A stretch of DNA of 64,000 nt, taken from an uncultured Clostridium sp. (GTDB lineage Bacteria > Bacillota > Clostridia > TANB77 > CAG-508). Made by a program: the position numbers and the translations under genes. The stretch is taken from positions 41,665 to 105,664 of the forward strand of contig CANPNZ010000003.1 of the NCBI GenBank assembly GCA_947575605.1. The letters are read 5' to 3'. The notes below the pieces were generated by a model. That model searched no databases. It worked only from the letters and a program-made list of their open reading frames with translations, and was not told the DNA's origin. This document shows, piece after piece, positions 35,621-52,105 of the stretch (its first letter is position 1; each line of letters begins with the position of its first letter).

Positions 35621-38131
35621 CTACTTTCTAGCAAATTTTCTCTCAATATCATATTTTGTCATTTTAATAACTGTTGGTCTCCCATGTGGACAAGTAAATG
35701 GATTTGGCAATTCTAATAGCTTGTCCATTAAAGCTTCTACCTCTTTTTCATCTAATGCCATATTGGCTTTTACTGCTGCTTTACAGGCTACTGTTGCAAT
35801 GAATTTTTCTTCTTTTTCTTGTTTGGCTGTTCTTGCTACTGTATTGATTTCATCTAATGTTTCTAAAAATAATTCTTTCGTATTTAAATCAATACAAACG
35901 GTTGGTACCCCATTTAATTTTATGGTATTGTCTCCAAATTCTTCTAAACTAAATCCTGCTTGCTCAAACATTTCCATATTTTCTCTGGCTATATCCATTT
36001 CTTTATGGGATAATGTCATAACGTCTGGCAATAATAACATTTGAGAGTCTTTGTTTTTCTCACTGTAATAATTTTTCTTTACTTTTTCGTACATAATTCT
36101 TTCATGGGCAGCATGTTGGTCTAATATGTACATTTCTTTGTCTATTTCTAATATAATGTAAGTTTTGAATACAATTCCAACAAATTTGTAGGTTGGTTTT
36201 TGGAATTCTTCTGTTTCTTCAAATACAGATACATTATCTTTTATAATATCAACTGCACTCGTTTTTTGCTGTTCTTCTCTCTCTTTTTCTTCTATTTCTC
36301 TTTCTTTTTCAATTGGCAATCTTCCAAACATTTTAGCATACATTTCATTAAAATCTTTGGAAACTACTTCTGGATTGTTATTTAAGTCTTGCATTTTTTG
36401 TTTGATTTCTTCAAATTCTTTTTGAATTTCTGGGTCTTCTATATTTTCTATGATTTCTTCTGCTTTTTCTTCCCCTGGTTCTTGCGTATTATTGTGTTTG
36501 CACTCTTCTTCCTTTTCTGGCTGTTTTTCTGTCTCTTTTTCCTCTTCGTTTTCGTTGTCTAATTGTTCTTTTATTGATTCCTCTTCTTTTTCTTCTGTTA
36601 CTTGTTCTGCTACTACAACTTCATCATTATTTTCATTTACTTTTTTTTCTGATTCGTTTTCTGTTTTTTGTTGTTCCTGTTTTTCTTCTGCTATTTCTTT
36701 TATTACTTCTTCTTCCTTTGTTTTTTCCTCTATGGTGTCATTTGCTATTTTTGCTTCTTCTTTTGCTTCTAACTTATATTCTGTTTCTGTATCTTTTAAT
36801 CCCACTACTGGTGTTATATTTTTCTTTTCTAAATCTTTTACAATTTTTTCTTTCATTTCTCTTAATTGTTTTAAAACATCAGATGTGTCAATTGGTGTTC
36901 CTATTTCTTTTAACTTAGGTGTCTGCTCTTCTTCTTTTTGACCTTGAAAAACTTCCTCTACATGATTGGTTTTTATACTACTCTCTTCTTCTGTGTACTT
37001 TTCAATCTTCTTTTCATTTTGCTTTCTAAATCCAAATAAGCCGCTACTATTATTTGAGTTCTCTTTCTTGGCTTCTCTAATGCTTTTTAATCTTTCTTCA
37101 AAGCTTACTTCTCTAGGTGTTGTCGCCGTATTTACTACCAATTCACTTTTTAATAAAGTATCTTTTATGGCATGATAAATAGATTGAAATATTTTGTTTT
37201 CTTCTTCAAAACGTACCTCCAATTTTGCTGGATGAACATTAACATCCACTTTGGCTGGATTCATTTCGATGTTTAGAATAACAAATCCAAATTTTCCAAT
37301 TGGTATCAAGCCTTTATAAGCTTGCTCTGTCGCAGCTGTTAAAGTTTTGTCTTTGATGTATCTTTTATTCACAAAAAATAATTGATGGGAACGATTGGAT
37401 CTAGCTATTTCTGGCTTTCCAATAACGCCTGAAATCGTGATGTCTTCATATTGATAATTTAGTTCCATAATACCATTGGCTACATCTTTTCCGTAAATAC
37501 TGTATATAACACTTTTTAATTCTCCATTCCCATTGGTTTGAATGACTGTTTTTCCTGTATTAATTAGCTTTATGCTAATTGCTGGATTAACTAATGCTAT
37601 CCTTGTGATGACATCTTCTATATATCCTGATTCTGTATAATCTTTTTTTAAGAATTTATATCTAACTGGTGTATTAAAAAATAAATTTCTAACGGTAATA
37701 GAAGTTCCTGTCTGACATCCTACTTCTTCTTGCTCTAATATGTCTCCCCCTTCTACTACAATTCGATAACCTGTTTCTTGTTCTTGTGTTTTGGATACCA
37801 TTTCTACATTACTAATGGCTGCAATACTTGCTAAGGCTTCTCCTCGAAACCCCATAGAAGTTACTAAGTCTAAGTCATCCGCTGTTCTAATTTTGCTGGT
37901 AGCATGTCTTTCAAAAGCAATTTCTAAGTCGTCTTGTGCAATTCCTTTTCCATTGTCTGTTACTTTTATGTAAGATATTCCTCCATTTTTGATTTCTACC
38001 GTTATATTGGTTGCTCCTGCATCAATTGAGTTTTCTACCATTTCTTTTATGACAGATGCTGGTCGCTCTATTACTTCTCCTGCTGCTATCTTATTAATCG
38101 TTAATTCGTCTAATAATACTATGTTTCCCAT
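35621..38131 (-). CDS. mutL: DNA mismatch repair endonuclease MutL with an expanded E/K-rich linker
   Basis: GEVIERPASVIKEMVENSIDAGA GHKL ATPase motif and DQHAAHERIMYE endonuclease motif; 836 aa. Confidence 0.93.
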   Translation of the reverse strand: MGNIVLLDELTINKIAAGEVIERPASVIKEMVENSIDAGATNITVEIKNGGISYIKVTDNGKGIAQDDLEIAFERHATSKIRTADDLDLVTSMGFRGEALASIAAISNVEMVSKTQEQETGYRIVVEGGDILEQEEVGCQTGTSITVRNLFFNTPVRYKFLKKDYTESGYIEDVITRIALVNPAISIKLINTGKTVIQTNGNGELKSVIYSIYGKDVANGIMELNYQYEDITISGVIGKPEIARSNRSHQLFFVNKRYIKDKTLTAATEQAYKGLIPIGKFGFVILNIEMNPAKVDVNVHPAKLEVRFEEENKIFQSIYHAIKDTLLKSELVVNTATTPREVSFEERLKSIREAKKENSNNSSGLFGFRKQNEKKIEKYTEEESSIKTNHVEEVFQGQKEEEQTPKLKEIGTPIDTSDVLKQLREMKEKIVKDLEKKNITPVVGLKDTETEYKLEAKEEAKIANDTIEEKTKEEEVIKEIAEEKQEQQKTENESEKKVNENNDEVVVAEQVTEEKEEESIKEQLDNENEEEKETEKQPEKEEECKHNNTQEPGEEKAEEIIENIEDPEIQKEFEEIKQKMQDLNNNPEVVSKDFNEMYAKMFGRLPIEKEREIEEKEREEQQKTSAVDIIKDNVSVFEETEEFQKPTYKFVGIVFKTYIILEIDKEMYILDQHAAHERIMYEKVKKNYYSEKNKDSQMLLLPDVMTLSHKEMDIARENMEMFEQAGFSLEEFGDNTIKLNGVPTVCIDLNTKELFLETLDEINTVARTAKQEKEEKFIATVACKAAVKANMALDEKEVEALMDKLLELPNPFTCPHGRPTVIKMTKYDIERKFARK

Positions 38132-38300
38132 TTTCTCTTTTCATTCCTTCCTATACATGCTAGGTTTTTTCTTTCTTTGGCTTTTATTATATCATTACTT
38201 TTTTTATTTTGTATAGGCTTTTATGAAATTTTTTTGTTTATAATAGTTACTATTTCGTTACAACTCACAGTTAAAAAAAATACTGACAAAAATTATGATA

Positions 38301-38330
38301 GACAGACAGGACTTTTCAGCCCTGCCTGCC
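38301..38330 (-). terminator. GC-rich hairpin terminator after the split membrane-protein gene
   Basis: Minus-strand GGCAGGCAGGGC-TGAAAAG-GUCCUGUCUGUC (uses G-U pairs), 53 nt after the stop at 38383. Confidence 0.5.
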
Positions 38331-38382
38331 TTTGATACATTCATATCTTCATTGTTTCTCCGCCTTTTCTGGTTACAATTGC

Positions 38383-38556
38383 TTATGCTTTAGACTTATG
38401 TTTTCTCTCAATCAGAGGTTCATCCCATTCATAGTCGTCCTTTAATTTCTCATATGCTATCACAAAAGCAATGATTGCTATAATGGATAAAGCCCCCCAC
38501 CAAAAGAATTGTTCATTATAGGGATAAATACTTATTCCCTGTGCATCACAGGAATC
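38383..38556 (-). pseudogene. 3-prime part (57 codons plus stop) of a membrane-protein gene split by the integrative element
   Basis: The frame reads DSCDAQGISIYPYNEQFFWWGALSIIAIIAFVIAYEKLKDDYEWDEPLIERKHKSKA* with no start codon. It begins exactly at the GGAATCT repeat. Confidence 0.75.
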
Positions 38557-38630
38557 TCATATTCATATCTACATACAACCCTAAATCCTGAAATATTTAG
38601 TGTGGATATTCATGTCTACGATGCACATTG

Positions 38631-40403
38631 CTATATGTCTGAACATACCTTAATGTGAATTTTGTTTATAATATCTTTTCTTTTATAACCATTTTCTTTT
38701 ACATTAAATACTTCAAAAAATACCTCTGCATCCAGCTCTGTTATTAATGTTTCATCTATATATGTGATTCGATTTTCTTTATCTATTGTATTTGTACCTA
38801 TATTATCAGAATTTAATATAAATTTCAAGGCAAATGGCTTAACACTTCCATCTTTATTGTAATCACCTACAATAATTTCTTTTACCATACATTTAAAAGA
38901 ATTGTCTTCAAACTCATTAATTAATTCGTTATTGTTATTAATATTCTTTCTCATCGTTTGAACTCTTTCTTTTACTTTTTCTTCTGATTTTGATGTAGAT
39001 ATTGCTTTTTCAATCTTTTTATCACAATTTTTTATTTCATCTTCTAATTCTTGTCTTTTCTTTGTGTATGTTTCATCATCTATAATTTCATTTAGATTCT
39101 TTTCTACTAATTTTTCCGTTTGTTTCTTGCAATTTTCTTTCTTAGCTTTTAAATCTTCTATTAAAGAATTTACATTGTATTTTGTTAATAGCTTTTCTAT
39201 TTTATTAAAAAAGTTATCTACTACGTTTTTATTATTCTTTAGTAATTCGTTATGAACTGTAATAAAACATTGCTGCAAAACTTGTTCTGGTATTCCTCTA
39301 CTGTTTGGACAGTTTTCTTTTCCATGTTTAATTGATGATACACAATTCCAACCTACTTTTAAATTATCTTTTTGTCCCCAAGTTTTTCTCGAATATATTC
39401 TGCCACAAAAAGCACATTTAATTTTACCACTAAAGGCATATTTATTTTCAAGTGTAACTTGTCTTTCTCCTGGTTTTGCTCTTGATTTCATTATTTCTTG
39501 TACTTTATTCCAAGTTTCTTCAGATATTATTGCTTCATGATTATTAGAAGTATAATATTGGTCTACTTCTCCCATATTAATCATTCTCTTGTGTGAAATT
39601 GGATCTACAGTAAATGTTAAACCTTGTATTACATCACCTTTATATTTTACATTTTTTAATATTTTCCTTACACTACTATCAGACCATACTACATTTCCTA
39701 GTTTTGTTTCTACTCCTAAATCTGTTAATTCTTTTGCTATAATTGTAGCTCCTGCTCCCTGTAAATATCTATTATAAATATACCTTACTGTCTTTTTCTC
39801 CTCTTCATTTATAGTTATAGAATGATTTTTTCTATCATAATCATATCCTAAACACCCATTAAATCCAATTAGTTCTCCTCTTTCCATTTTTGCTTTGAAT
39901 CCTAATTTTACATGGTTAGATATGTTCTCACTTTCTTGTTGTGCTACTGAACTTAATATTGTTAATACAAATTCGCTAGACATTTCTAATGTATTTATAT
40001 TTTCTTCTACAAAATATACTGCTATGTTCTTTTCTTTTAACATTCTAACATATTTTAATGTATCTACTGTATTTCTAGCAAATCTTGATATTGATTTTGT
40101 AATTATCATATCAAATTTTCCACTAAGTGCATCATTTATCATTCTCATAAAATCACTTCTTTTATAGTCTAATGTCCCACTAATAGCTTCATCCGAGTAC
40201 ATATCAATATATATCCAATCTGAATTTTCTTTTATTTTTGATTTAAAGAATAATAACTGCGATTCATAACTATTCTTTTGGTCTTCATCATCTGTACTTA
40301 CTCTAGCATAAGCTGTTACTCTTAATAGTCCATTAATAACACCTCCATTCCTTCTATCAATTCTTCCATCGAATTTTTTTATTACTTTTACTTTAGCACC
40401 CAT
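38631..40403 (-). CDS. Large serine recombinase (integrase)
   Basis: YARVSTDDEDQ catalytic-Ser resolvase domain, recombinase domain, zinc-ribbon cysteines (CAFCGR...CPNS), coiled-coil tail. GGAGG lies 7 nt before the ATG at 40403. Confidence 0.9.
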   Translation of the reverse strand: MGAKVKVIKKFDGRIDRRNGGVINGLLRVTAYARVSTDDEDQKNSYESQLLFFKSKIKENSDWIYIDMYSDEAISGTLDYKRSDFMRMINDALSGKFDMIITKSISRFARNTVDTLKYVRMLKEKNIAVYFVEENINTLEMSSEFVLTILSSVAQQESENISNHVKLGFKAKMERGELIGFNGCLGYDYDRKNHSITINEEEKKTVRYIYNRYLQGAGATIIAKELTDLGVETKLGNVVWSDSSVRKILKNVKYKGDVIQGLTFTVDPISHKRMINMGEVDQYYTSNNHEAIISEETWNKVQEIMKSRAKPGERQVTLENKYAFSGKIKCAFCGRIYSRKTWGQKDNLKVGWNCVSSIKHGKENCPNSRGIPEQVLQQCFITVHNELLKNNKNVVDNFFNKIEKLLTKYNVNSLIEDLKAKKENCKKQTEKLVEKNLNEIIDDETYTKKRQELEDEIKNCDKKIEKAISTSKSEEKVKERVQTMRKNINNNNELINEFEDNSFKCMVKEIIVGDYNKDGSVKPFALKFILNSDNIGTNTIDKENRITYIDETLITELDAEVFFEVFNVKENGYKRKDIINKIHIKVCSDI

Positions 40404-40483
40404 ATGTTCAACCTCCATATAGTGCTTGCTACATCATATATTGTATACTCTTTTTATTACCGAATCAATTTCAAAAAAATTTT

Positions 40484-40603
40484 TCACAGAATCTTCTTTA
40501 AATGCTCATATTCCTTATCCTTAAGCAATTTTTGCTTATATAAAAAATTCAAAAAGTATATTTCTGTGCTTTTTATTAATAGTTTATTGATGTTTTCAAA
40601 CAT
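40484..40603 (-). CDS. Possible 39-aa ORF upstream of the recombinase
   Basis: GAGGAG lies 9 nt before the ATG; MFENINKLLIKSTEIYFLNFLYKQKLLKDKEYEHLKKIL. No homology can be judged. Confidence 0.25.
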   Translation of the reverse strand: MFENINKLLIKSTEIYFLNFLYKQKLLKDKEYEHLKKIL

Positions 40604-40662
40604 TTATCTCATCTCCTCATATATGACTGTATCAAGCCTTATTAATGTTTATTTTGCAAAAT

Positions 40663-40697
40663 AAATAAGTGAAAGAGTTTTACCCCCTCACTTATTT
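40663..40697 (-). terminator. Terminator-like hairpin after the Fic operon
   Basis: AAATAAGTGA-15 nt-TCACTTATTT. Confidence 0.5.
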
Positions 40698-40765
40698 GCT
40701 CACTAAAGTCGATTTTGTACTCCCCTGTTTTAAAAAATTTTTTATTTTTTTTGAAATTTAAAAGT

Positions 40766-40881
40766 CTATAGGACGAATTTTTTGAATTTTCCGTCCTATG
40801 AATTTTTATAGGACGAAATTTTTATTTTTTTCGTCCTATGGATTTTTATAAGTCAATTTTTTTGACTTTTTCGTCTTATAA
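40766..40881. repeat. Three tandem 35-bp palindromic units with about 40-bp periodicity
   Basis: TATAGGACGAA-N13-CCGTCCTATG; TATAGGACGAAA-N9-TTTCGTCCTATG; TATAAGTCAA-N-CGTCTTATAA. They start 4 bp after the Fic stop. Confidence 0.85.
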
Positions 40882-40884
40882 CTT

Positions 40885-42021
40885 TTATTTTAAAAATAAA
40901 TCTATATAATTTTGAAAAGCAAATACTTGATTTCTACTATATCCAGTTGTTTCTATTATTATATTATTTTCTAACAAAACATTTACTGTATCCTTTAATG
41001 TTGATGGTTTTATATCAGTTATTTCCATTAATTTTTTTCTATTTGTTATTGGTTCATTATACAAAACATCGATTACTTTCTTTGCATTTTCTACTTTGAC
41101 TGGTAAATCTATTATAATTTTATCCATTTCCATTGTAAGTTCAACAACATTTCTAAATTTTTCTTTAGCAATTTTTGATGTTTCAATAACTGCTTCTAGG
41201 AAAAATTTAATCCATCCAATCATATCATTGTGAGTTCTTACTCTTGTAAGCATATCATAATATGTATCTTTATTCCTTTCGATATAATCTGAAATATATA
41301 AACAAGACTTTTCAAGCATTCCTCTACTTTGAATATATAATGGTATAATTAATCTTCCTATTCTTCCATTCCCATCTAAAAATGGATGTATTGATTCAAA
41401 TTGATAATGTAAAATTGCGATTTTTATTAAATCTGGTGTGTCTATTTCTTCATTATTTATAAATTTTTCAAAATCAGATAGGCATTCTGCAATTTCTGTA
41501 TGTGGTGGTGGAACATATACTGCTGTACTCGGCATACTGCCTCCAATCCAGTTTTGTGATGTTCTAAATTCTCCTGGTGTTTTATGTTCTCCTCGAACTC
41601 CTTGCATTAATATATTATGTATTTCTCTTATTAATCTAGTGCATACTGGAAAACCTTCTTTTATTCTTTCTACTCCATAATTTGTAGCTTTCACATAGTT
41701 TTGTACTTCTTCCCAATCATCTCTCTTTTCTGGATTAATATCTGTAACATCTAATAAATCTTCCTCTACCGTTGTTCTTGTTCCTTCAATTCTGCTTGAT
41801 TTATTGGCTTCAATTTTTACATGCATTTTAATGTATAAATCCACATTTGGTATTAATAATGAATAAGCATTTAGTTCTCCAATTTGCCTATTTGCTTCTG
41901 CTAATAGCTTGTCCAATTTTGTATCATCCCATCCCCAGTTGTAATTTATTTTACTTGGAATAAATGCTTTGTAGTCATTCATTTGTATATATTCACCTGA
42001 TTTATATGCTTCTAATTTCAT
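40885..42021 (-). CDS. Fic-family protein (AMPylase type) with an N-terminal inhibitory-helix motif and a C-terminal wHTH-like tail
   Basis: HPFLDGNGRIGR matches HxFx(D/E)GNGRxxR. SSRIEG fits (S/T)xxxE(G/N). GGAGG lies 8 nt before the ATG. Confidence 0.88.
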   Translation of the reverse strand: MKLEAYKSGEYIQMNDYKAFIPSKINYNWGWDDTKLDKLLAEANRQIGELNAYSLLIPNVDLYIKMHVKIEANKSSRIEGTRTTVEEDLLDVTDINPEKRDDWEEVQNYVKATNYGVERIKEGFPVCTRLIREIHNILMQGVRGEHKTPGEFRTSQNWIGGSMPSTAVYVPPPHTEIAECLSDFEKFINNEEIDTPDLIKIAILHYQFESIHPFLDGNGRIGRLIIPLYIQSRGMLEKSCLYISDYIERNKDTYYDMLTRVRTHNDMIGWIKFFLEAVIETSKIAKEKFRNVVELTMEMDKIIIDLPVKVENAKKVIDVLYNEPITNRKKLMEITDIKPSTLKDTVNVLLENNIIIETTGYSRNQVFAFQNYIDLFLK

Positions 42022-42040
42022 TTATATCGCCTCCAAAATC

Positions 42041-45000
42041 TTAAATATATTCATCAAGAAATTCTCGTTCTTTAATACTTTCCTTATATTTTTTTAATCC
42101 ATCTATTCTATTTTCAATCTTAATTTTATGCTTTAAGTATTTAATATCTGTTAAAAGATCTGATATTTTTTTATAGAAATTTATTCTATTATTTATTATA
42201 GGTATTTCACTTCCAGACCAAGACATACTACTGCTAATTAAAGTTATTTTATCAAAAACATAAAAATCACTATTAACATTAAGAAATTTTTGTATAAGCT
42301 TTAATCTTCTCTCTTCATCAAACTCTGAAATTATATTAAAAATTTCTTCCATTTTATCTATATTCGTATTGTTTTTTTCTATATATGCTTCTAGCCATTT
42401 ATCCTGTTCAATACTATAATCTTCTTCTGAAAAAATTCCTTCTAACAAATACTGCCTCTTATGTCTTACTGTGATATTATCAATTTTACTAAGAAATATA
42501 TCTATTACCTTATCATAAATATCCATCTCCCATATATGTCTTATTGGTTCATTGTCATTGCTATAATATCCACTATTTTCCATTCTGAATTTTATATACT
42601 CATCTAGCAATTTTTCTTCAGCTATATTTAATATTTTATTGAAGTATAACCCTTTATAATCAAAGTATTGTTCAATTTTATATATTTTAAAATATATATC
42701 TATTAATAAACTAATATCTTTTATAAAAACACTTATAAGAAAATCTGCATTTTCAACATTATGTCTCCAAAACAATAAATTAGTAAATGTATATATTATC
42801 TGCTCATCATTATTATATACTCGATTTATTATTTTAAAAGTATTAATAAACACATCAGTATCAACACTTCTATATTTTTTTAGGAAATGTAAATTTATAT
42901 TTCTAACTATTGGCAATTCGATTTTTTCTCCTATTAATTTATACCATTCATCTAAAGCCTTTTTATTCACATTTCTAGTAGGAATTTCTGAAAAGCATGC
43001 TACTCTCCAACAAAATTTATTTTTTATATTACTTTCCGATATATATTTGTACAATTTATCAAATTCATACTCGTTATATAAAATTTCTATTGCTCTAGCG
43101 AAATCTATATCAATTATAGCACCACTAGTAATAAATTCCTGTATTATCTGTATATTATCATTTGGTCTATTATTAAAAATTTCTAAAAACAATATATCTA
43201 TCCCATACTTAATATCAGATATATTTTCTCCAACTGCACTTAATATTTCATTTATATTCTTAAAAATTTCTCTTATCTCATCTATTGAAGCATTTTTTAT
43301 AATTTTTTCTATTTCCCTTTGTCTTATTTTTCCATCATAATCTTTATTTTTTCCTTTTAAAATTTTATATAAATTATATGTTTTGTTGTTTCTAATATCT
43401 TCAGATATGTCTATACTTAATTTGCTTGTTTTTAATTCTTCTAATATATTATTTACAACTAATACTTCAGAAAAATTTGTTTTGTTTACTTTTTTACAAA
43501 ATTCTTCTATATATAATAAATCATTTTTCATTATTTCTTTTAGAGTTTTATTTTTATATTCTCTTATATAAAGATTATTAAATATATCATCTATTTCTCG
43601 CCTATAATTCACATGTTGATCATATACATCTAATAAGAACTTAAATATCTTATTTCTTATTTTTCTTAATCCTTCATCTTCCGCTAATGTATAATTGCAT
43701 ATCCTCATTGTTTTCATATTAACATTTTCCGCATAATCTCCATATGTTTTCAAAAAAATTGGTAATATAGTTAATCCTAATATAATGATATTTTCCTCAC
43801 AATTAGACTCTTTATATTGTTTTATCAATTCATCAATAAAAATATTTTGTACTACATAATTGTTTCTAATGTCATCAATTCTAAAAGATATATAATTTTT
43901 CACACAAAAATATATATCCTTTATTAGTATAGGTTTCTTTTTAAAAAATATAAATAATAATTGTACTGCCATACAAAAATGCTCTGAGTCTCTATATCCT
44001 ATCAATCTAGTTAATTCTTTATTTTCTATAGAATAATTCTTTTCTTTTTTTACATTTTGTATCTCATTAATATCTAGTTTTATATTTTCAGCACTCTTTT
44101 GATTAATCCTTTCAGAGATACTATTTAAGGCTTCTATTGGAATTAACGCATGAAATGTATCCATAAATTCTTGCTTATCTATATCTCTGTTTTTTCCAGA
44201 TTTTATATCTTCCCATAAATCCTTTATAGAATCCTCGACAATATCAATTGTATTTTTACTATAGAAAATATTAGTTAAAGTATTTAGAGATTCTATCATT
44301 CTTTCTCGTGGCCCATTAAATGTTACTTCTATTATACTTTTTATAGAAATATACCTATTTTTTACAAATACTAAATATAGTAAATAATTTGCTAAACATT
44401 GTTCTGATATTTTAGTCATTTTATCATTTAATACATCAACAAATTCAATATCATTTAAAATATGTATTGCATCCCAGAAATCATTCATTGATATATTTAC
44501 TTTTTCAAGTAGTTCTATAAACTTTTCATTTGTTTTGTTTACCCCATTTAAAAAAGCAATTAGTCCAGCCGATTTAACAATTTTATTTTCATTTTGAATC
44601 ATTAACTCATCTATAACGTTTTTAAAATAAATATCATATATTTGCTCTCCACTTATTATTTCTTGAAATCCTTTTTCTTTTGCTACTTTTCCTGCCATCA
44701 TAGCTATTCTAGGATTACTTAAAGATATTTTTTGAATTTGCTCTATATATGTTGAATTTTTTATTCCTAATTCTGAACTAAGAATCTCTTTAATTTGTTC
44801 ATCTGTAAGTGGTTTTAATTCTATATTTTTAGGTATAATATAGTATTTACTTAGCAAATTTAATACTTTACTCTTTGCATAGTCTCTTACTGTCATTATA
44901 ACTTTTAGAGTTTTAAATTGGTGTATCTTAATATAATCCAAAAATTGGCTCATATTAGTTAGCATATTAGCATCATCAATAAAAATTAAATATTCTCCAT

Positions 45001-45763
45001 TTTTCTTAAAATATTTTTGTAAATCTTCATATAACTGTAAATTATTGTTTCGTATACATATGACATTAATATTTTTATTTATAGATTTATATCTTTTACA
45101 TAATTCTACACAAAAATGAGTCTTTCCAGTTCCAGCAGATCCACTTAATATAATATAATTATCATTATTTATAATACTAATTGATTTATCTATCTCTTCA
45201 TCTCTATACAACAATCTTTCATTTATTTTAATTGTTAATTTATTAGAATTATATTGACTAATAAAATCTTCAATTTGTAATATTTGTAATGTATCAACTT
45301 CTATTTTTAAATAATCTTTAGCAATTGTAGCATATTCATATTTCAATAGATATGCAATCTCATCTATACTATATATTTTTATATTAGTACCAATATCATT
45401 ACAAAGTTTTTCTATTTTTTTTAATTCTTCTAGTTTAAGATTAGATGATGTATGAAAATAAATGATTTTTGTGTCTTTAGTATCTATCTTTGCAATTTTA
45501 AATACTTGAACACATTTATTAATATCATCTTCAATTTTGCCAGCCAAGCCATCAGTTTGAGTTGTATACTCAACGGCAATATATTTACCATTATCACTTG
45601 CAAATGCATCTGGAGTTCCCTTTGTGGTTTTATTTGATAAAGTATGAGAACCTAATTGGTTTATATTTTTATAGCCTTTTCTATATAATATTTCATTACA
45701 CATATTTTGAAATTCTCCTGGACCCAGTTCTATTATTTTACTCTTTATATCTAATACATCCAT
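42041..45763 (-). CDS. 1240-aa protein: N-terminal restriction-endonuclease-like domain, P-loop NTPase (STAND/AAA-like), long helical-repeat C-terminus
   Basis: GPGEFQNMCNEILYRKGY...GTPDAF...YIAVEYT (Mrr-like pattern), GSAGTGKTH Walker A, YLIFIDDAN Walker B, ELKPLTDEQIKEIL, then about 850 aa of N/I/K-rich helical sequence. Confidence 0.7.
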   Translation of the reverse strand: MDVLDIKSKIIELGPGEFQNMCNEILYRKGYKNINQLGSHTLSNKTTKGTPDAFASDNGKYIAVEYTTQTDGLAGKIEDDINKCVQVFKIAKIDTKDTKIIYFHTSSNLKLEELKKIEKLCNDIGTNIKIYSIDEIAYLLKYEYATIAKDYLKIEVDTLQILQIEDFISQYNSNKLTIKINERLLYRDEEIDKSISIINNDNYIILSGSAGTGKTHFCVELCKRYKSINKNINVICIRNNNLQLYEDLQKYFKKNGEYLIFIDDANMLTNMSQFLDYIKIHQFKTLKVIMTVRDYAKSKVLNLLSKYYIIPKNIELKPLTDEQIKEILSSELGIKNSTYIEQIQKISLSNPRIAMMAGKVAKEKGFQEIISGEQIYDIYFKNVIDELMIQNENKIVKSAGLIAFLNGVNKTNEKFIELLEKVNISMNDFWDAIHILNDIEFVDVLNDKMTKISEQCLANYLLYLVFVKNRYISIKSIIEVTFNGPRERMIESLNTLTNIFYSKNTIDIVEDSIKDLWEDIKSGKNRDIDKQEFMDTFHALIPIEALNSISERINQKSAENIKLDINEIQNVKKEKNYSIENKELTRLIGYRDSEHFCMAVQLLFIFFKKKPILIKDIYFCVKNYISFRIDDIRNNYVVQNIFIDELIKQYKESNCEENIIILGLTILPIFLKTYGDYAENVNMKTMRICNYTLAEDEGLRKIRNKIFKFLLDVYDQHVNYRREIDDIFNNLYIREYKNKTLKEIMKNDLLYIEEFCKKVNKTNFSEVLVVNNILEELKTSKLSIDISEDIRNNKTYNLYKILKGKNKDYDGKIRQREIEKIIKNASIDEIREIFKNINEILSAVGENISDIKYGIDILFLEIFNNRPNDNIQIIQEFITSGAIIDIDFARAIEILYNEYEFDKLYKYISESNIKNKFCWRVACFSEIPTRNVNKKALDEWYKLIGEKIELPIVRNINLHFLKKYRSVDTDVFINTFKIINRVYNNDEQIIYTFTNLLFWRHNVENADFLISVFIKDISLLIDIYFKIYKIEQYFDYKGLYFNKILNIAEEKLLDEYIKFRMENSGYYSNDNEPIRHIWEMDIYDKVIDIFLSKIDNITVRHKRQYLLEGIFSEEDYSIEQDKWLEAYIEKNNTNIDKMEEIFNIISEFDEERRLKLIQKFLNVNSDFYVFDKITLISSSMSWSGSEIPIINNRINFYKKISDLLTDIKYLKHKIKIENRIDGLKKYKESIKEREFLDEYI

Positions 45764-45782
45764 TTCATTATTTACTCCTCGC

Positions 45783-46256
45783 TTAATTATTTATACATAT
45801 TGGTGTATAATCAATTACATCACAAGATACACATATATGATTGCTTTTATCAAATCTTTCATCCAATGGCTTATCATGTATATGTCCAAAAACATTGATA
45901 TAATTTCTTTCCACTTCAATTGGTTCATGTGTCAAAATTAGATTTCCTAGAATAAATTTCTTTTTATATACTTCACTAAATCCAACTTCTTTCCAACCAT
46001 TTAATCCTCTTTTATAATCATGATTTCCTCTTATTAATATTTTTGTACCATTTAATTTGTCAACTAATTGCTTTAATTCTTCTGTACTACCAAATCCAAC
46101 ATCTCCCAAATGATAAACAATATCATTTTCAGTAACAACAGAATTCCATTTATTTACTATATATTCATTCATTTCTTTTGAATTTTTGAACGGTCTATTG
46201 CAATATCTAATTATATTTTCATGATTAAAATGTGTATCTGCTATAAAATATTTCAT
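45783..46256 (-). CDS. Small calcineurin-like metallophosphoesterase (157 aa)
   Basis: ADTHFNH, HLGDVGF, RGNHDYK, LTHEP and FGHIHD motifs in canonical order. Confidence 0.85.
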   Translation of the reverse strand: MKYFIADTHFNHENIIRYCNRPFKNSKEMNEYIVNKWNSVVTENDIVYHLGDVGFGSTEELKQLVDKLNGTKILIRGNHDYKRGLNGWKEVGFSEVYKKKFILGNLILTHEPIEVERNYINVFGHIHDKPLDERFDKSNHICVSCDVIDYTPICINN

Positions 46257-46298
46257 GACGTCCTCCTATTATCTTTAATTGTACTTGCGAACATTTGT

Positions 46299-46327
46299 AT
46301 TGTATTATTTTTCTTAAAAATATTCAA
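46299..46327 (-). promoter_or_regulatory. Candidate promoter of the phosphoesterase/ATPase/Fic operon
   Basis: TTGAAT - 17 nt - TACAAT on the minus strand, about 40 nt upstream of the TAGGAGG RBS. Confidence 0.4.
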
Positions 46328-46450
46328 TCTTTTTAGCGAAATTTGTAAAAATTTATTGCTAAAGAAACAAATTACATTATAATAGTTTTGCATTTACTTG
46401 TTACACACTTATAAAGTGTGTAGTTTGTTTAATCTTTTATGAAGATAAAT

Positions 46451-46479
46451 AAAAGCCTTCTATCAAAAGAAGACTTTTT
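46451..46479 (-). terminator. Terminator after the HAD gene
   Basis: AAAAGTCTTCT-tttgat-AGAAGGCTTTT followed by ATTTAT on the minus strand. Confidence 0.6.
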
Positions 46480-46527
46480 ACCTTGAATATGTACTTCTAA
46501 GGCATATATAAAATAATTTCCGATTAA

Positions 46528-47253
46528 TTATCTCTCCAATTCATGTTTCATATAAGTTAGCATTTCAATATAATCTTTAAATTGATATTGTGATAATTGA
46601 TTAATTTTCTCTCTATTACAATCAGAATACTTATCATATATTACTGCTACCTCTATACCTGCATTATTTCCTGCTTCTACTCCTATAAGTGAATCTTCTA
46701 TTATTAGACATTCATCAGCTGTTACATTTAATTCTTTTAATATCTTATAATGTATCTCTGGATTTGGTTTTAGTTCTTTAACTGCGCCTTTTGAGTATAC
46801 AAGCGAAAATATATCTTCGATGTTTGCCTTATTTATTATATTTCGATTGTGTTTCTTATATATTTCTATTGTATGGTCGTTTGTTGTACTTGCGATAGCT
46901 AATATAAATCCTTTTTCTTTTAAATACTCTAAGACTCTTTCAACATTCGGTTTATAATCAATTAACTTTCTTAAATAATTGTCTGCTATTTGATACCTTA
47001 AATTTTTTATATCTGCAATTTCCATATTTGAACCATACTTTTGTTTTAAAAATTTACAATATTCTAAATAAGCATCTTCACATTTGCTATATTCTTTTAA
47101 TTTTTCATCTCTTTGTTTTCCTATATCTATATTATCAATGTTTCCGTTTCCTATTGCTTTTATTAGCTCTTTATCTATTTCGTTCCATATTCCTATTGAA
47201 TCAATCAGTGTTCCATCCATATCAAATATAATTACTTTTTTACCTTTTAACAT
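46528..47253 (-). CDS. HAD-superfamily phosphatase
   Basis: IIFDMDGTLIDS motif I, ASTT motif II, IEDSLIG motif IV. Confidence 0.85.
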   Translation of the reverse strand: MLKGKKVIIFDMDGTLIDSIGIWNEIDKELIKAIGNGNIDNIDIGKQRDEKLKEYSKCEDAYLEYCKFLKQKYGSNMEIADIKNLRYQIADNYLRKLIDYKPNVERVLEYLKEKGFILAIASTTNDHTIEIYKKHNRNIINKANIEDIFSLVYSKGAVKELKPNPEIHYKILKELNVTADECLIIEDSLIGVEAGNNAGIEVAVIYDKYSDCNREKINQLSQYQFKDYIEMLTYMKHELER

Positions 47254-47271
47254 ATTGAGTTATACCTTTCT

Positions 47272-47892
47272 TCATCTAATATTTTTCCCTAATTTTATTC
47301 CTCTAGTTTCAATTATATTAAACTTACCATTATCATATTCTAATAATGTAGTTGCCACATCATCAATTTCCTCTATTTCTCTATCCACATTCAATATGTT
47401 TTTAAATATACTTTTATGTACATTACCATGTGTTACTATTGCAATTGTATTTAATCCTTCACTGTCTTTTATGATAGAACTAATTGCTTGTTTTACTCTT
47501 TTATCAAATTCTTCAATATCTTCTCCTCCTAAGAATGTCTTGCCAAAATAATATCCTGTATTTTTATATTCTTCTTTTTGAAATACATAAGAAAATATAT
47601 TTTTGGCAAGTTCTTTATTTATACCAGATAAAATACCATAAGAATTTAACTCTCTTATGTCTTCTATAACTTTCAATTCCACTTTTATATCTTTATTAAG
47701 TATTTGTGCTGTTTGATACGCTCTTTTATACGGACTTGTATATATTCTTTCTATTCCATAACTATCTATTTCTTTTTTATATTCTTTTACTTTATCTTTT
47801 CCGTTTTCTGTTAAGTTAAAATCAGCAATTCCTCCATAACAATTTTCTATATCGTCTATAGACTCGCTATGTCTTATTAAATAAATCTTCAT
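47272..47892 (-). CDS. Histidine phosphatase (phosphoglycerate-mutase family)
   Basis: IYLIRHSES catalytic His motif; VTHGNV second His. Confidence 0.8.
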   Translation of the reverse strand: MKIYLIRHSESIDDIENCYGGIADFNLTENGKDKVKEYKKEIDSYGIERIYTSPYKRAYQTAQILNKDIKVELKVIEDIRELNSYGILSGINKELAKNIFSYVFQKEEYKNTGYYFGKTFLGGEDIEEFDKRVKQAISSIIKDSEGLNTIAIVTHGNVHKSIFKNILNVDREIEEIDDVATTLLEYDNGKFNIIETRGIKLGKNIR

Positions 47893-48304
47893 AATTTGTC
47901 CAGCCTTTCTTACTCCTTCGATATTATGTATCTTTTTATATCATAATTTGCCCTATTTTCAAAGTCTTTTAATAATATTTTATACCGTTCCATATATCCA
48001 TTTATCCTTTTCTAATACAACACACATTATTTTTTACCCTTTCTACTTTTCCTGTGTTATCTCCTTATACTCCACACACCCTAAATCTCGATTTTGCTTT
48101 ATTTTTCAAGTTTTATAATAGTGTCAAAATGTCCAGTTGAGTTGTTGAAAAAATAACTTTAAATGGACATTTTAACCTATCCATTTAAACCTCGTTTTGT
48201 GTCCAGTTTTACATTTTTTGTTTAGTAATTTATATTTATTAAGATAAAATAGAATTGTGCTATTTACACTCTCATTTGCTATATGTCTATAATTTTTTCT
48301 GTTC

Positions 48305-49213
48305 TTATAATAGCTTTTCTATTTCTTCGCCTTTTAAATATACATCATTTATTTTATTGATTTGTTCCTTAGCTTCTTCTATTCTATTATTAGCTAGTAA
48401 ATATCCAACTATATATACAAAAGAACTTTTTAAATAAGCATAGGCTAATTTCTTATTTAAGTTTTTATCATCTAACTGTTTTTTATCTATTCCAGTGATA
48501 ATTCCTTCTATAAACTGCTTACTTTTATTTGCTTTTTCATCATTATTCATAATGTGATATATTTCACATCTTAAAGCAATTGGTAAATATATCAAAGCAC
48601 TATTTTCATAATCTATCATCAAAAATTCATCACTTACCATTATGTTGTCTGCTTTTAAATCCCAATGCATATAAAGAGGTATATCATCTTTAAAATATTC
48701 TATTAGTCTTTCCATATCGTTCTTTATTTTCTCTACATCTATATTTGGAAGAATTTTTTTGTACTTTTCTATTAATTCTACTGTTTGATTATATTTTTTC
48801 AATTCTGCTTTCTTAAATTCTGTAAAAAAGTTATCATTAATGTTTGTATATTTTTCAATTAATATTTTTTGTTTTTCTCCTAACTTTCCTGCCTTATTAA
48901 ATATATCCTCTTGTATAAGATTATCATATACTTCTTCTAAAGTACCATTGTCCATATAATCCATTATAATATAATAACCCAAATTTTCTGTTTGACCGTA
49001 TTCTAGTATATTTGGGATAGGTTGGTTTGTTTCAATATATTTATCTGTAACACTTTTTCTGCCTAAATTATTATCTTTATATATCTTTAGTATATATTTT
49101 TTATTGTCTTGATATAATTTGAACACTTTAGCATAAGATAATCCTTTATTTATTAGTTCTACTTTTGAACATTTATCTAAAAATTTAATTTCTTTCTTTA
49201 AAGAATCAAGCAT
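48305..49213 (-). CDS. Protein-kinase-like / aminoglycoside-phosphotransferase-fold kinase
   Basis: HWDLKADNIMV catalytic loop and IDYENS (DFG-equivalent). Confidence 0.75.
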   Translation of the reverse strand: MLDSLKKEIKFLDKCSKVELINKGLSYAKVFKLYQDNKKYILKIYKDNNLGRKSVTDKYIETNQPIPNILEYGQTENLGYYIIMDYMDNGTLEEVYDNLIQEDIFNKAGKLGEKQKILIEKYTNINDNFFTEFKKAELKKYNQTVELIEKYKKILPNIDVEKIKNDMERLIEYFKDDIPLYMHWDLKADNIMVSDEFLMIDYENSALIYLPIALRCEIYHIMNNDEKANKSKQFIEGIITGIDKKQLDDKNLNKKLAYAYLKSSFVYIVGYLLANNRIEEAKEQINKINDVYLKGEEIEKLL

Positions 49214-49612
49214 CTATTTCTCCTTAATTGCAATTACTTCTATTTCTATTTTACATCCTTTTTTAACTAGACTATTTACTTCAACTAATGTACTTACTGG
49301 TTTACTATTTGCAAAATATTTATTTCTAATAGGCGATACTTTAGCAAAGTCATTCATATCTGTCAAAAAAATTTGAGTTTTTACTACATCATCTAAACTT
49401 GAATTTGCTTCTTTTAATATTTTTTGAATGCAATTAAAAACATATTCTGTTTGTCCTTCAATATCTTCACATACAACATTCCCTTTTGAGTCTTGTGCAA
49501 TTTGTCCAGTAACAAATATCATTTCTGCAGTACCTATATCTACTTTTATTCCATGAGAATAAGCCCCCATAATTTCTGCTGAATCTTCTGGTATGATACT
49601 TTCTTTAAACAT
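49214..49612 (-). CDS. RidA/YjgF-family deaminase
   Basis: GAYSHGIKV..., PVSTLVEVNSLVKKGCKIEIEVIA. AGGAGG precedes the ATG at 49612. Confidence 0.8.
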   Translation of the reverse strand: MFKESIIPEDSAEIMGAYSHGIKVDIGTAEMIFVTGQIAQDSKGNVVCEDIEGQTEYVFNCIQKILKEANSSLDDVVKTQIFLTDMNDFAKVSPIRNKYFANSKPVSTLVEVNSLVKKGCKIEIEVIAIKEK

Positions 49613-49626
49613 ATTCTTTCCTCCTC

Positions 49627-50391
49627 TTAAATACTCTTTCCTCCATCTACAAGATATATTGCTCCAGTTGTCCATAATGACTTATCTGATAGTAAAAATT
49701 CTATTGTTGGTGCTATATCTTTTTTAGCATCTCCAATTCTTCCTAATGGATATAATGGTGCTTTTTCTTCTGACCATTTATCATATCCTTCTTGTGTATA
49801 GTCTCCACTTGCTACATAAATGTTAGTATATACTGCTGCAGGATTTACACTATTTACTCTTATATTATATTTTCCAAGTTCTTGACCCATATATTTAGTT
49901 AGCATATCAACTCCTGCTTTACTTGCACAATAAGCTATTGAGCCTCCTGCTCTTTCTGATGACATTGAAGAAATATTTACAACCGATGTATTTGTTCCTT
50001 TTTTTAATAAAGGTAATAGTGTTTTAGTTAATGCAAATATTCCTGTTAAATTTATATTTATAGAATTATTCCATTCTTCAATAGTTTGCTCTTCAATTCC
50101 ACCTAATTTAATAATTCCTGCTGAATTTACTAATCCATCTAGTTTTCCATATTTTCTATCTATTTCATTATATATCTTTTTGCAATCTTCTATATTACTA
50201 ATATCTCCTTGTAAAAATGTAACTTTGTCAGAATTACTACCTAATTTTTCTTTTGCTAAAGATAAATTTTTATCTCCTCTTGACAGAGAAATAATCTCAT
50301 AATTTTCTTGTTCCAATAAATATTCTATTGTTCCAAGACCAATACCACTTGTTCCTCCTGTTACTAAAACAACTTTTTTATTATCTAACAT
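49627..50391 (-). CDS. Short-chain dehydrogenase/reductase (SDR)
   Basis: VTGGTSGIGLG cofactor motif and YCASKAG (YxxxK). Confidence 0.88.
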   Translation of the reverse strand: MLDNKKVVLVTGGTSGIGLGTIEYLLEQENYEIISLSRGDKNLSLAKEKLGSNSDKVTFLQGDISNIEDCKKIYNEIDRKYGKLDGLVNSAGIIKLGGIEEQTIEEWNNSININLTGIFALTKTLLPLLKKGTNTSVVNISSMSSERAGGSIAYCASKAGVDMLTKYMGQELGKYNIRVNSVNPAAVYTNIYVASGDYTQEGYDKWSEEKAPLYPLGRIGDAKKDIAPTIEFLLSDKSLWTTGAIYLVDGGKSI

Positions 50392-50849
50392 TTTTTACCT
50401 CCAATAATCTTATTTATAATATAAATCTTTTCATCCATATGTTTAATTTATATCACAATTTAACACATTTTCATAGTCTTTTACAAATATTTTTATCTAT
50501 CAACACATTCTTTAACATTTATTAATTTTTTCCTTTGGGCAGACGCAAGGCCTGCCCCTACAATTCTACTTTGTTTACAATATTAAAGAAGATAAAGTAT
50601 CTCTACTCTATCTTCTTTAGTAACAAGCACTTTCTTTATTTTTTTATTTCAATTAGGTAGTGTGCATATACATGTTTACGCATCCCCTGTTATTTTTGCA
50701 ATTATGTCCACTCTACTTTTTTTGCCATCTTTTTATGTTTTTTGCTCTTTTTCTATCTTTTAAAAAATCTTATCAAATTCTTTTGTATCAATGGTTATGT
50801 GTTTTTCTTTAAACTTAGAACTGATACACATTCGACGTGGGTGCTGAAC

Positions 50850-51230
50850 GGAATCTTGTCCTCCTGTCAGGCCTTTTCTTTGCCTTTCCAATCCAAACAG
50901 CTGATTGTTAATGTTCTCTTTTGAGAGGATTTTTAATTCCTCTCTACTTCTCAATAAGTTTTGGTACCAGATTCCAATATCGTTATTGGGATCCTTCCAA
51001 AAAATAGAGATTTGTCCTTCCGTTAATTGCTTCTTTTCCAGTGCTACAATTGCAGCAGTTAATTCTTCTTCTGCTGTTTCAATTGTGCCTGCCTCGACAT
51101 AGTTCTGAAGATGACCTTTTACTTTTACAGTAAAGTCATCCGCAGCCACTAGCCGAATAATGGCCCAAACCCCAAACGACGCAATTGAAAGAATCAGTAA
51201 AGCTGTGATAAGTTTTCCTTTTGTCATCAT
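50850..51230 (-). pseudogene. 5-prime part (127 codons) of the membrane-protein gene split by the integrative element
   Basis: MMTKGKLITALLILSIASFGVWAII... up to ...GLTGGQDS. After the GGAATCT repeat the ORF runs 29 codons into element DNA and stops. Confidence 0.75.
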
Positions 51231-51393
51231 AAAATACCTCCTATTTTAAGACATTCGGCAGAGAGATACTTGATACATATTCTTATTATATCATACATTC
51301 ACATAATTTTCAATTTTCCTTCCATTTATTAAAAATCTTTTTTACATAATGTCTTAAACTATATCACAATAACTGTAACTTTCTAAAAATGGA

Positions 51394-51424
51394 AACGGAA
51401 CCAACTTTAAGTTTGATTCCGTTG
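51394..51424 (-). terminator. Terminator after the SecF-like gene
   Basis: AACGGAATC-13 nt-GGTTCCGTT followed by TCCATTTTT on the minus strand. Confidence 0.6.
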
Positions 51425-51448
51425 TTCTTTATCTTAAAACTTATGTTT

Positions 51449-52105
51449 TTATTCCTCTTCTTTTCTCTTCTCTGCTAACTTTTTCTCAAAATAAGAAGTA
51501 ATTGCAATTAGGGACAATACATACACTGCCAATACCAATGGAATCGTTATCCTTCCAATTGGTATTCTTGCAATTGCCATAACACTTAACAAAGTAGCTT
51601 GTGCTACTATTAGTAAAGCAACTGTTTCTAGCAAGGTTTTGATCATACCTAATTTATAATAGCGAATTGCCATATATACTAATATAATAATGGTTGCGAT
51701 AGCAAAAGGCATAATATATGGTCTTACAATATCTCTTCCTCTTGTATGAGGAATATTGGTTATTTGTATACTATCTGTTGTTAGCTCTAATCCATATTTT
51801 TCATTCACTTTATTGATAAGATTACTTTTTTGTTCTTCTGTCATTTCTTTTGCCAAAATACTAACGGTATCTTCAAACACTTCTACTTTTTGAATCACCA
51901 CTGCTTGGTTTGGTAATACTTCATCTGTTATTTGTTTGATATCTCCTATTTGAAAATCTTTTTCTAAATATAATTGTATACTTTTTGCTTCTTGATATCT
52001 TAAATCAAAATTCAAACCGATTGTAAAGGTAACAATCATTCCTGCTATGATTATCATTGCTATCAAAATTGCTAATATTTTTGTTTTTTTGTTCATTTCT
52101 TTCAT
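51449..52105 (-). CDS. SecF-like protein-export membrane protein (short form)
   Basis: N-terminal TM, periplasmic-type domain, C-terminal TM bundle. It lies directly after the SecD-like gene (2-nt gap). The assignment rests on architecture. Confidence 0.5.
   Translation of the reverse strand: MKEMNKKTKILAILIAMIIIAGMIVTFTIGLNFDLRYQEAKSIQLYLEKDFQIGDIKQITDEVLPNQAVVIQKVEVFEDTVSILAKEMTEEQKSNLINKVNEKYGLELTTDSIQITNIPHTRGRDIVRPYIMPFAIATIIILVYMAIRYYKLGMIKTLLETVALLIVAQATLLSVMAIARIPIGRITIPLVLAVYVLSLIAITSYFEKKLAEKRKEEE

Follow-up and report, generated by a model that had tools for sequence, protein, structure and literature searches.

In a 64,000-nucleotide stretch of DNA from an uncultured Clostridium sp. 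(hereafter the window), three co-oriented minus-strand genes encode a 157-aa metallophosphoesterase (MPE), a 1240-aa STAND protein (hereafter the big protein, encoded by the big gene) and a 378-aa Fic protein. A first-pass annotation had put this trio forward as a candidate three-gene defense system. From comparison of the locus with its relatives, we consider it likely that it is instead a defense-cassette hotspot on a 12.3-kb serine-recombinase island, in which the MPE and Fic genes are the conserved flanks and an Avs-like STAND protein occupies the slot between them.

Results

Conserved MPE and Fic blocks flank alternative defense cargo

The genes of the locus and the elements that accompany them are listed by window position.

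45783-46256, minus strand: MPE gene, 157 aa
42041-45763, minus strand: big gene (1240-aa STAND gene), the variable cargo of the slot
40885-42021, minus strand: Fic gene, 378 aa
46257-46478, minus strand: left-block leader, with a hairpin/terminator (46478-46451), a promoter-like site (46327-46299) and the MPE ribosome-binding site (RBS)
40736-40886, no strand: hairpin repeats 3' of Fic, three 40-nt repeat units

We fetched 35 genome loci from the MPE side for synteny mapping of the island proteins and DNA. Two blocks, 86-90% identical in loci L182-L189, L199, L208 and L213, frame the slot. The left block (46477-45783), comprising the hairpin, the promoter and the MPE gene, has this identity in L182-L189 and starts sharply at ~46477, and the right block (42039-~40760), comprising the Fic RBS, the Fic gene and the palindromes, shows 86-90% DNA identity across the sister islands. 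The DNA similarity is interrupted between the two, with breakpoints at the MPE stop codon and the Fic RBS. The Fic copies themselves are about 90% identical in L182-L185, L189, L199, L208 and L213.

The content of the slot differs among these islands. L183 and L184 carry GajA (616 bits) and GajB (375 bits) together with a 189-aa gene, L189 and L199 carry a KAP NTPase with DUF4238 (candidate system PDC-S49), L185 carries a 200-aa gene (L185:887-1489), and L182 retains about 700 nt of shredded big-gene remnants between intact MPE and Fic genes. Where Fic is absent, the MPE gene is followed by KilA-N (PDC-S22) and an OLD-like nuclease (L188), by KilA-N and a Schlafen-type protein (L186), or by AbiEi/AbiEii (L187). 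The locus is thus a defense-cassette hotspot, with conserved flanks and alternative defense cargo at the same position. Gabija and KAP NTPase plus DUF4238, which share the MPE-Fic slot, and AbiE, which follows MPE in the island without Fic, are alternatives to the big protein and are unrelated to it in sequence and mechanism. The 189-aa (L183:4595-5164) and 200-aa slot genes have no Pfam or PADLOC match, and a 330-aa gene (L190:10562-11554) that follows a more distant MPE copy at a locus without Fic has no PADLOC match; all three are candidate defense genes.

Losses at the locus affect each gene separately. In L208 and L213, MPE is cut to 51 and 24 codons, respectively, and runs into Fic, with the 3' end of the DUF4238 cargo retained in L208. 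The synteny of MPE, big gene and Fic is kept in relatives L081-L085 (78-100% identical), among which L085, a close relative of the window clade, has an MPE remnant, and L084 has an in-frame stop in Fic with the MPE and big genes intact. As the MPE, big and Fic genes are each lost independently somewhere, each is dispensable for the others. We also considered asymmetric decay, in which only the flanks degrade and the big gene persists, on the basis of L084 and L085, and rejected it because L182 shows the reverse, which leaves three independent modules. Co-occurrence across genomes, the check that the first-pass annotation had named for a joint system, failed in these comparisons, as flanks and cargo assort independently in the sister islands.

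This arrangement resembles the P2/P4 and pipolin hotspots (PMC11551731), where backbone genes likewise flank a short region of swapped defense systems on an integrative element. It differs in that the island is ~12 kb in size, has a large serine recombinase and uses MPE and SoFic genes as flanks, and in that the window island contains no phage, conjugation or PolB genes. As the breakpoints lie exactly at a stop codon and an RBS, the cargo here is inserted into an operon, unlike that of P2/P4 elements and pipolins.

The hotspot lies on a serine-recombinase integrative island

The element that carries the hotspot and its recombinase occupy the following positions.

38544-50837, no strand: integrative island, 12.3 kb, absent from the closest relative, L086 (blastn, junctions)
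38631-40418, minus strand: large serine recombinase, 595 aa, at the mutL-proximal island end

With mutL (35621-38131) as an anchor, we obtained 80 related loci from metagenome-assembled genomes (MAGs) of uncultured gut Clostridia. The closest relative, L086, whose mutL is 94% identical, has an empty site, and blastn of L086 against the window jumps from 38543 to 50838. The genes found in the window at 52108-53544, 51449-52105 and 50760-51230 abut mutL in L086 and in many other MAGs (g478-g218-(g156)-mutL contiguous), and the empty-site arrangement is seen in L086 and in dozens of relatives. GTG cores are present at both island junctions (38541-38543, left junction CCCT-GTG-CATCA; 50837-50839, right junction CGAC-GTG-GGTGC), and the uninterrupted attB in L086 reads CCCT-CTG-GGTGCTGAACGG. 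The insertion lies in the 3' part of the 156-aa gene g156 (50760-51230, minus strand) and truncates it, with the hydrophobic C-terminal segment found in L086 replaced in the window by island-encoded residues. Given the empty site in L086 and the junction sequences, we conclude that the window contains a 12.3-kb insertion.

The recombinase gene lies 88 nt from one island end, and its product matches the Pfam families Resolvase (4e-31), Recombinase (1.5e-22) and Zn_ribbon_recom (8e-11) as well as the integrase family phrog_95 (1.5e-131). With recombinase domains at its end and a precise empty site in a close relative, the island is a large serine recombinase integrative element, in keeping with the earlier placement of the three genes on a mobile element next to an integrase. 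The further proposal that this element carries defense cargo beside the recombinase also held, given the empty site and a slot shared with known defense systems.

The slot occupant resembles Avs STAND sensors

The big protein has three parts.

45269-45763, minus strand: N-terminal α/β domain (N-domain), aa 1-~165
44354-45211, minus strand: NTPase and winged helix, aa ~185-470
42044-44353, minus strand: α-solenoid sensor, aa ~470-1240

The NTPase motifs of the big protein (Walker A GSAGTGKT, residues 208-215; Walker B LIFIDD, 259-264; TVRD, 291-294) are invariant across 60 sequences. A Pfam search with 21 family members matched nSTAND5 in 21 of 21, NACHT in 15 and nSTAND3 and NB-ARC in 14 each, all weakly, and UniProt labels relatives of the big protein as nSTAND3 NTPases. 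We modeled the protein with AlphaFold2 (AF2) as two segments, residues 1-470 (pLDDT 87) and 441-1240 (pLDDT 88). In a Foldseek search with residues 1-470, EcAvs4 (8dgf) ranked first (E 5e-12, 514 columns), followed by Avs3, Avs5, SAMD9, Apaf-1, CED-4 and ORC/Cdc6. The C-terminal 800 aa are an all-α solenoid for which Foldseek returned generic karyopherins alone (TM 0.2-0.3); this sensor is unlike any solved sensor, and the Pfam search of the 21 members gave no sensor match. We found no HTH or other DNA-binding output domain in the big protein.

The N-domain carries the motif P51-D52…E65-Y66-T67, in which P51-D52 is invariant, and K76 and D80 in the next helix are also invariant. In the 150 best-matching of 943 representative clusters (50% identity), the N-domain is confined to the ~1240-aa architecture or to shorter, fragment-like matches. 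Sequence searches of the PDB with a family profile or an N-domain profile returned P-loop noise and a chance dioxygenase match, which we discarded.

The layout of the AF2 models (N-domain as presumed effector, NTPase with winged helix, and a sensor of at least 400 aa) matches that of Avs proteins. Sequence motifs, AF2 models and Foldseek ranking all agree with the earlier description of a giant STAND/Avs-like protein in which an effector-like N-terminus precedes an NTPase and a long repeat sensor. Our preferred reading of the big protein is an Avs-like STAND sensor that acts on its own.

The big-protein family is widespread and sits among defense genes

We identified 525 homologs of the big protein, nearly all 1220-1260 aa long and aligning end to end, with relatives in 238 species. 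The family comprises at least 943 clusters at 50% identity in many phyla, including an archaeon. For neighborhood analysis we kept the 80 best genome loci of the big gene and eight metagenomic contexts, 88 contexts in all. The 80 genome loci span Bacillota, Cyanobacteria, Bacteroidota, Proteobacteria, Planctomycetes and one archaeon, and the neighbors of the big gene in them include a rumA/rlmCD integration site (17 loci), RhuM, HsdR, AIPR, HEPN, XamI and a kinase. The eight further contexts come from the subfamily closest to the window protein (33-34% identity), and in them the big gene stands at the 3' end of clusters of type I, II and III restriction-modification (R-M), AIPR, PARIS-like, GmrSD and SLFN-helicase genes. 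No MPE gene lies within 10 kb of the big gene at any of the 80 genome loci (0 of 80), and none is present in the eight metagenomic contexts (0 of 8).

Copies 76-94% identical to one another occur across Lachnospiraceae, Streptococcus, Veillonella, Vagococcus and Streptobacillus, a distribution that implies recent and wide horizontal transfer. In another subclade (L004, L010, L011, L015, L021, L022, L030, L041, L063, L079 and others; gene at about 10001), the big gene follows, at a distance of 20-30 nt, a rumA/rlmCD methyltransferase gene with an extended 3' end. This placement suggests that it lies at the edge of an element inserted at this known hotspot. The RhuM neighbor is limited to a single subclade, whose members are 76-94% identical, and is fragmented in 3 of 12 loci. 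We considered RhuM as a Fido-fold partner of the big gene and rejected it on this restriction and fragmentation and on an hhalign probability of 0.4% against Fic.

The big protein is found in no phage records. Plasmid records contain it in Leptospira and in one B. cereus, annotated as hypothetical or ATP-binding. The Leptospira copies, on 13 plasmids of L. interrogans and L. noguchii (matches H16-H28), are distant homologs with 25-29% identity that are labeled "hypothetical", and several are shortened to about 60% of the full length. Relatives of the big protein match the PADLOC mad8 and PDC models alone, and weakly. A 2026 survey (Lee et al., PMC13581612) describes 198 defense-associated STAND clades and 684 sensor clusters; its main text names no such ~1240-aa family.

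The flanking genes encode a phage-type phosphoesterase and a SoFic-type AMPylase

The MPE contains the motifs DTH (residues 7-9), GDVGF (51-55), GNHD (77-80), THE (109-111) and GHIH (124-127), and matches Pfam Metallophos (PF00149) with 31.4 bits against a cut-off of 21.5. It also matches phrog_547 (4e-45), with homologs in 1704 phage records; the family is also common in lytic phages. The sole solved relative is an uncharacterized Aquifex protein. By these matches, the MPE is a predicted calcineurin-like metallophosphoesterase of phage type with all five metal-binding motifs intact, as the first-pass annotation had stated. There are at least 120 close MPE clusters, at 69-89% identity, and in the Clostridia genomes examined MPE is consistently embedded among defense genes. 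More distant copies (71-78% identity; L190, L192, L195) adjoin AbiEii, PDC-S01 and a Gabija remnant. We conclude that the MPE gene is a conserved backbone or leader gene of the islands and that neither the big gene nor Fic needs it.

The Fic protein has Fic_N and Fic domains (Pfam) and a C-terminal winged helix-turn-helix (wHTH)-like region. Its inhibitory motif SSRIEG (residues 75-80), which fits the class II pattern (S/T)xxxE(G/N), and its active site HPFLDGNGRIGR (212-223), which fits HPFx(D/E)GNGRxxR, align to SSEIEN and HPFIDGNGRTGR of SoFic structures. The protein matches the SoFic structures 9tcl, 3eqx and 3zcn over its full length (E~1e-34 to 1e-36), the phmmer alignments to 9tcl and 3eqx covering residues 35-376, and it matches the PADLOC SoFic model over residues 15-376 (3.9e-118, 393 bits). 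It fails the NCBIfam equivalog test (171.5 bits versus a cut-off of 550), and because its score lies below this cut-off we regard it as a member of the SoFic family and not as an orthologue. These alignments identify it as a SoFic-type protein and a predicted auto-inhibited class II AMPylase. The intact motifs and their alignment to SoFic structures support the earlier view of an auto-inhibited AMPylase with an intact active site; the accompanying statement that the trio was not recognizable as any named system does not stand for its Fic part, which PADLOC already names. In the PADLOC run proposed at that stage, Fic was called and the big protein was not.

SoFic has been described as a single-gene anti-phage defense in which the AMPylase is toxic and a small antitoxin is encoded downstream (PMC12249575); it reportedly AMPylates EF-Tu and binds its own promoter (10.64898/2026.07.09.737422). 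The window Fic shares with it the Fic_N, Fic and C-terminal domains over the full length, the inhibitory SxxxEG helix motif and HPFxDGNGRxGR. It differs in acting as the conserved flank of a cassette slot and in its surroundings, where no AS1-like 47-aa gene is recognizable and only an unrelated 39-aa open reading frame (ORF) is present.

Transcription signals at the locus

Coordinates and spacer sequences bear out three co-oriented minus-strand genes with GGAG-type RBSs: the spacer between the MPE and big genes (45764-45782) and that between the big and Fic genes (42022-42040) are each 19 nt long and contain GAGGAG and GGAGG, respectively. Of the proposed shared promoter, the site itself exists, as TTGAAT-17-TACAAT at 46327-46299, and it falls in a DNA block conserved across the sister islands. 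Promoter-like sites are not enriched in the AT-rich window over shuffled DNA (72 seen versus 79.5 expected), and because of this the site carries no statistical weight of its own and we did not use it as evidence.

The terminator region proposed at the other end of the operon fared similarly. Two perfect palindromes, ATAGGACG-N16-CGTCCTAT, are present directly 3' of Fic at 40768-40799 and 40808-40839, 40 nt apart, with a degenerate third copy at about 40846-40880, whereas the terminator scan called a canonical terminator there on the plus strand only. The palindromes are unique within the window (0 expected by chance), and the pair lies inside the Fic-side conserved block (42039-~40760). They are probably a terminator or an operator: the pair may terminate transcription in tandem, or the Fic wHTH domain may bind it as an operator, the latter idea following from the report that SoFic binds its own promoter. 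An Rfam scan of 38000-51500 matched no family.

The hotspot and its alternatives

Several observations weigh against reading the locus as a hotspot whose slot holds a stand-alone Avs-like immune sensor. The 19-nt spacers indicate that the MPE, big and Fic genes are co-transcribed, and a Fic gene recurs beside the big gene in its closest subfamily (L001, L168, L169). PADLOC v2, run with thresholds that included E≤1, made no call for the window big protein. The N-domain has no sequence match in Pfam (21 members) or in the PDB, Thr67 stands where (D/E)xK would have its canonical Lys, and 2 of the 15 aligned N-domain sequences have another residue in place of E65. Its assignment as a putative nuclease draws on fold-level similarity via the long Avs4 alignment, and we keep the word "putative" because the canonical Lys is missing. 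The defense function of the big protein, its trigger and its effector chemistry are all proposed by analogy, and the exchange of cargo by homologous recombination is a suggestion from the block structure.

The alternative that fares best, which we nevertheless consider quite unlikely, is a two-gene STAND and Fic module in this branch of the family, where Fic would regulate the sensor or add a second effector. Four contexts from the nearer subfamilies have Fic beside the big gene: as a SoFic-type protein 19 nt downstream in the window clade and 116 nt downstream in L168, and as a 282-aa Fic 442 nt downstream in L169 and 44 nt upstream in L001. Fic subtype, side and distance thus vary. Outside the window clade this adjacency amounts to 3 of 88 contexts: two of the eight nearest-subfamily contexts have Fic downstream, and among the 80 genome loci a different Fic is adjacent in L001 only, with SoFic-like Fic in three loci at a distance of 6-9 kb. 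Seven other near-subfamily contexts (including L002) lack an adjacent Fic, as do 79 of the 80 genome loci. Moreover, the Fic block accompanies unrelated cargo and outlives the big gene in L182, SoFic is reported to be a toxic and self-sufficient defense protein (PMC12249575), and RhuM, the recurrent neighbor elsewhere, is unrelated to Fic and fragmented as noted above.

We see little chance that the big protein lies on the island by accident and has no immune role, serving instead in housekeeping or regulation as a MalT- or ORC-like STAND/AAA+ protein. Foldseek does also match ORC/Cdc6, RFC and RuvB, no defense hidden Markov model of PADLOC v2 calls the protein, and the catalytic motif of its N-domain is non-canonical. 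However, the family is sporadic across phyla with 76-94% identical copies in Lachnospiraceae, Streptococcus, Veillonella and Streptobacillus, the gene is always found among R-M and Abi genes or at the edges of mobile genetic elements, its slot is interchangeable with Gabija and with KAP NTPase plus DUF4238, a DNA-binding output domain was not found, and the best structural match is Avs4.

A similarly slim prospect attaches to a toxin/antidote-like pair of MPE and Fic, with MPE reversing AMPylation and the middle gene a passenger. The two are the conserved flanks, at least nine sister loci hold both at about 90% identity, and phosphoesterases could in principle cleave AMP-protein bonds. Against this, L213, L208 and L085 retain an intact Fic gene with only 24 to 61 aa of MPE left in front of it, many close MPE copies have no nearby Fic (L186-L188, L190-L198), and SoFic can itself deAMPylate and reportedly has another small protein as its antitoxin (10.64898/2026.07.09.737422, PMC12249575).

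The least probable reading is the one first proposed for the locus, a novel and obligate three-component system in which STAND senses and Fic and/or MPE serve as effector or regulator: it is favored by the 19-nt spacing with RBSs, the single upstream promoter-like site and the synteny in L081-L085 (78-100% identical), and is largely refuted by sequence comparison, since the trio does not co-occur outside a narrow clade, none of the 88 other big-gene contexts has MPE, in sister islands Gabija, KAP plus DUF4238 or the 200-aa gene stands between MPE and Fic, AbiE or KilA-N plus OLD follows MPE without Fic, the big gene is shredded in L182 with MPE and Fic intact, MPE is truncated with Fic present in L085, L208 and L213, and Fic has a stop in L084 with MPE and the big gene intact.

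Other features of the island

Two further features lie on the island outside the slot and its flanks.

40484-40603, minus strand: 39-aa ORF with a GAGGAG RBS, between Fic and the recombinase gene, upstream of the latter
46528-50391, minus strand: other island cargo, encoding a HAD hydrolase, a histidine phosphatase, a 302-aa protein, RidA and an SDR (Pfam)

The 39-aa ORF has no Pfam match. At its C-terminus it resembles the 61-aa ORFs that lie ahead of the recombinase genes in L185, L187 and L205. Possible products are a recombination directionality factor (RDF), a leader peptide or a small antitoxin. The HAD, histidine phosphatase, 302-aa, RidA and SDR genes lie outside the defense slot and are absent between g156 and mutL in L086; the 302-aa protein has no Pfam family. 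A histidine phosphatase 88% identical to that of the window island sits just past the recombinase in L187 (7176-7796), which suggests that the island family has another cargo module with a different arrangement.

Discussion

Our comparisons favor a defense-cassette hotspot in which cargo would be swapped among islands by homologous recombination between the conserved blocks and would be read as part of an MPE-led transcript. By analogy with characterized Avs proteins, the C-terminal α-solenoid of the big protein would bind a phage protein; ligand binding would release autoinhibition, the NTPase would drive oligomerization, and oligomerization would activate the N-terminal restriction-endonuclease-like domain, so that the infected cell would be killed or arrested. 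Fic would then be a separate, self-contained abortive-infection module of SoFic type that provides an independent layer, a role we infer from its sequence together with the literature on SoFic.

The characterized systems closest to this proposal are Avs4 (Mrr-like nuclease-STAND-TPR, 8dgf) and Avs5 (SIR2-nSTAND3), with which the big protein shares its tripartite layout, its single-gene organization and its occurrence in defense islands and on mobile genetic elements. EcAvs4 is the best Foldseek match of residues 1-470, and the nSTAND3 domain of Avs5 has its counterpart in an NTPase that matches nSTAND5 and nSTAND3. In contrast to these systems, the big protein is not detected by the PADLOC AVAST models, its N-domain matches neither Mrr nor Cap4 in sequence and has PD…E-x-T in place of (D/E)xK, its 800-aa sensor matches no solved Avs sensor, and its family is mostly from Bacillota with a fixed length of ~1240 aa.

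A broader and more speculative combination, which we regard as unlikely to hold as a whole, is that the MPE and SoFic genes are a shared chassis for interchangeable sensors and effectors and, separately, that the N-domain of the big protein is a new kind of Avs effector and its solenoid recognizes a phage component sensed by no characterized Avs. As parts of such a chassis, MPE would have a nucleotide or protein-phosphate signal as its target, and the SoFic protein, through its wHTH domain and the adjacent conserved palindromes, would govern transcription of the operon and provide a back-up abortive-infection layer. The N-domain could be a new effector in view of its PD…E-x-T motif, its TSSN and its near confinement to the ~1240-aa architecture.

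For annotation of such loci, the hotspot corrects a tempting mistake, as operonic tightness on an island does not make a system. Our analysis also flags a large NLR-like family of fixed ~1240-aa architecture for which we found no experimental characterization, no solved structure and no known trigger, and which is testable with the phage-gene co-expression screens used for Avs7-21. Finally, the slot that extends from the MPE stop codon to the SoFic RBS on the small serine-recombinase islands of uncultured gut Clostridia is a handle for discovery: among the cargo at this position, the 189-aa and 200-aa genes of the slot and the 330-aa gene that follows a more distant MPE copy without Fic are unannotated, and they may represent new defense genes from gut bacteria that have received little study.

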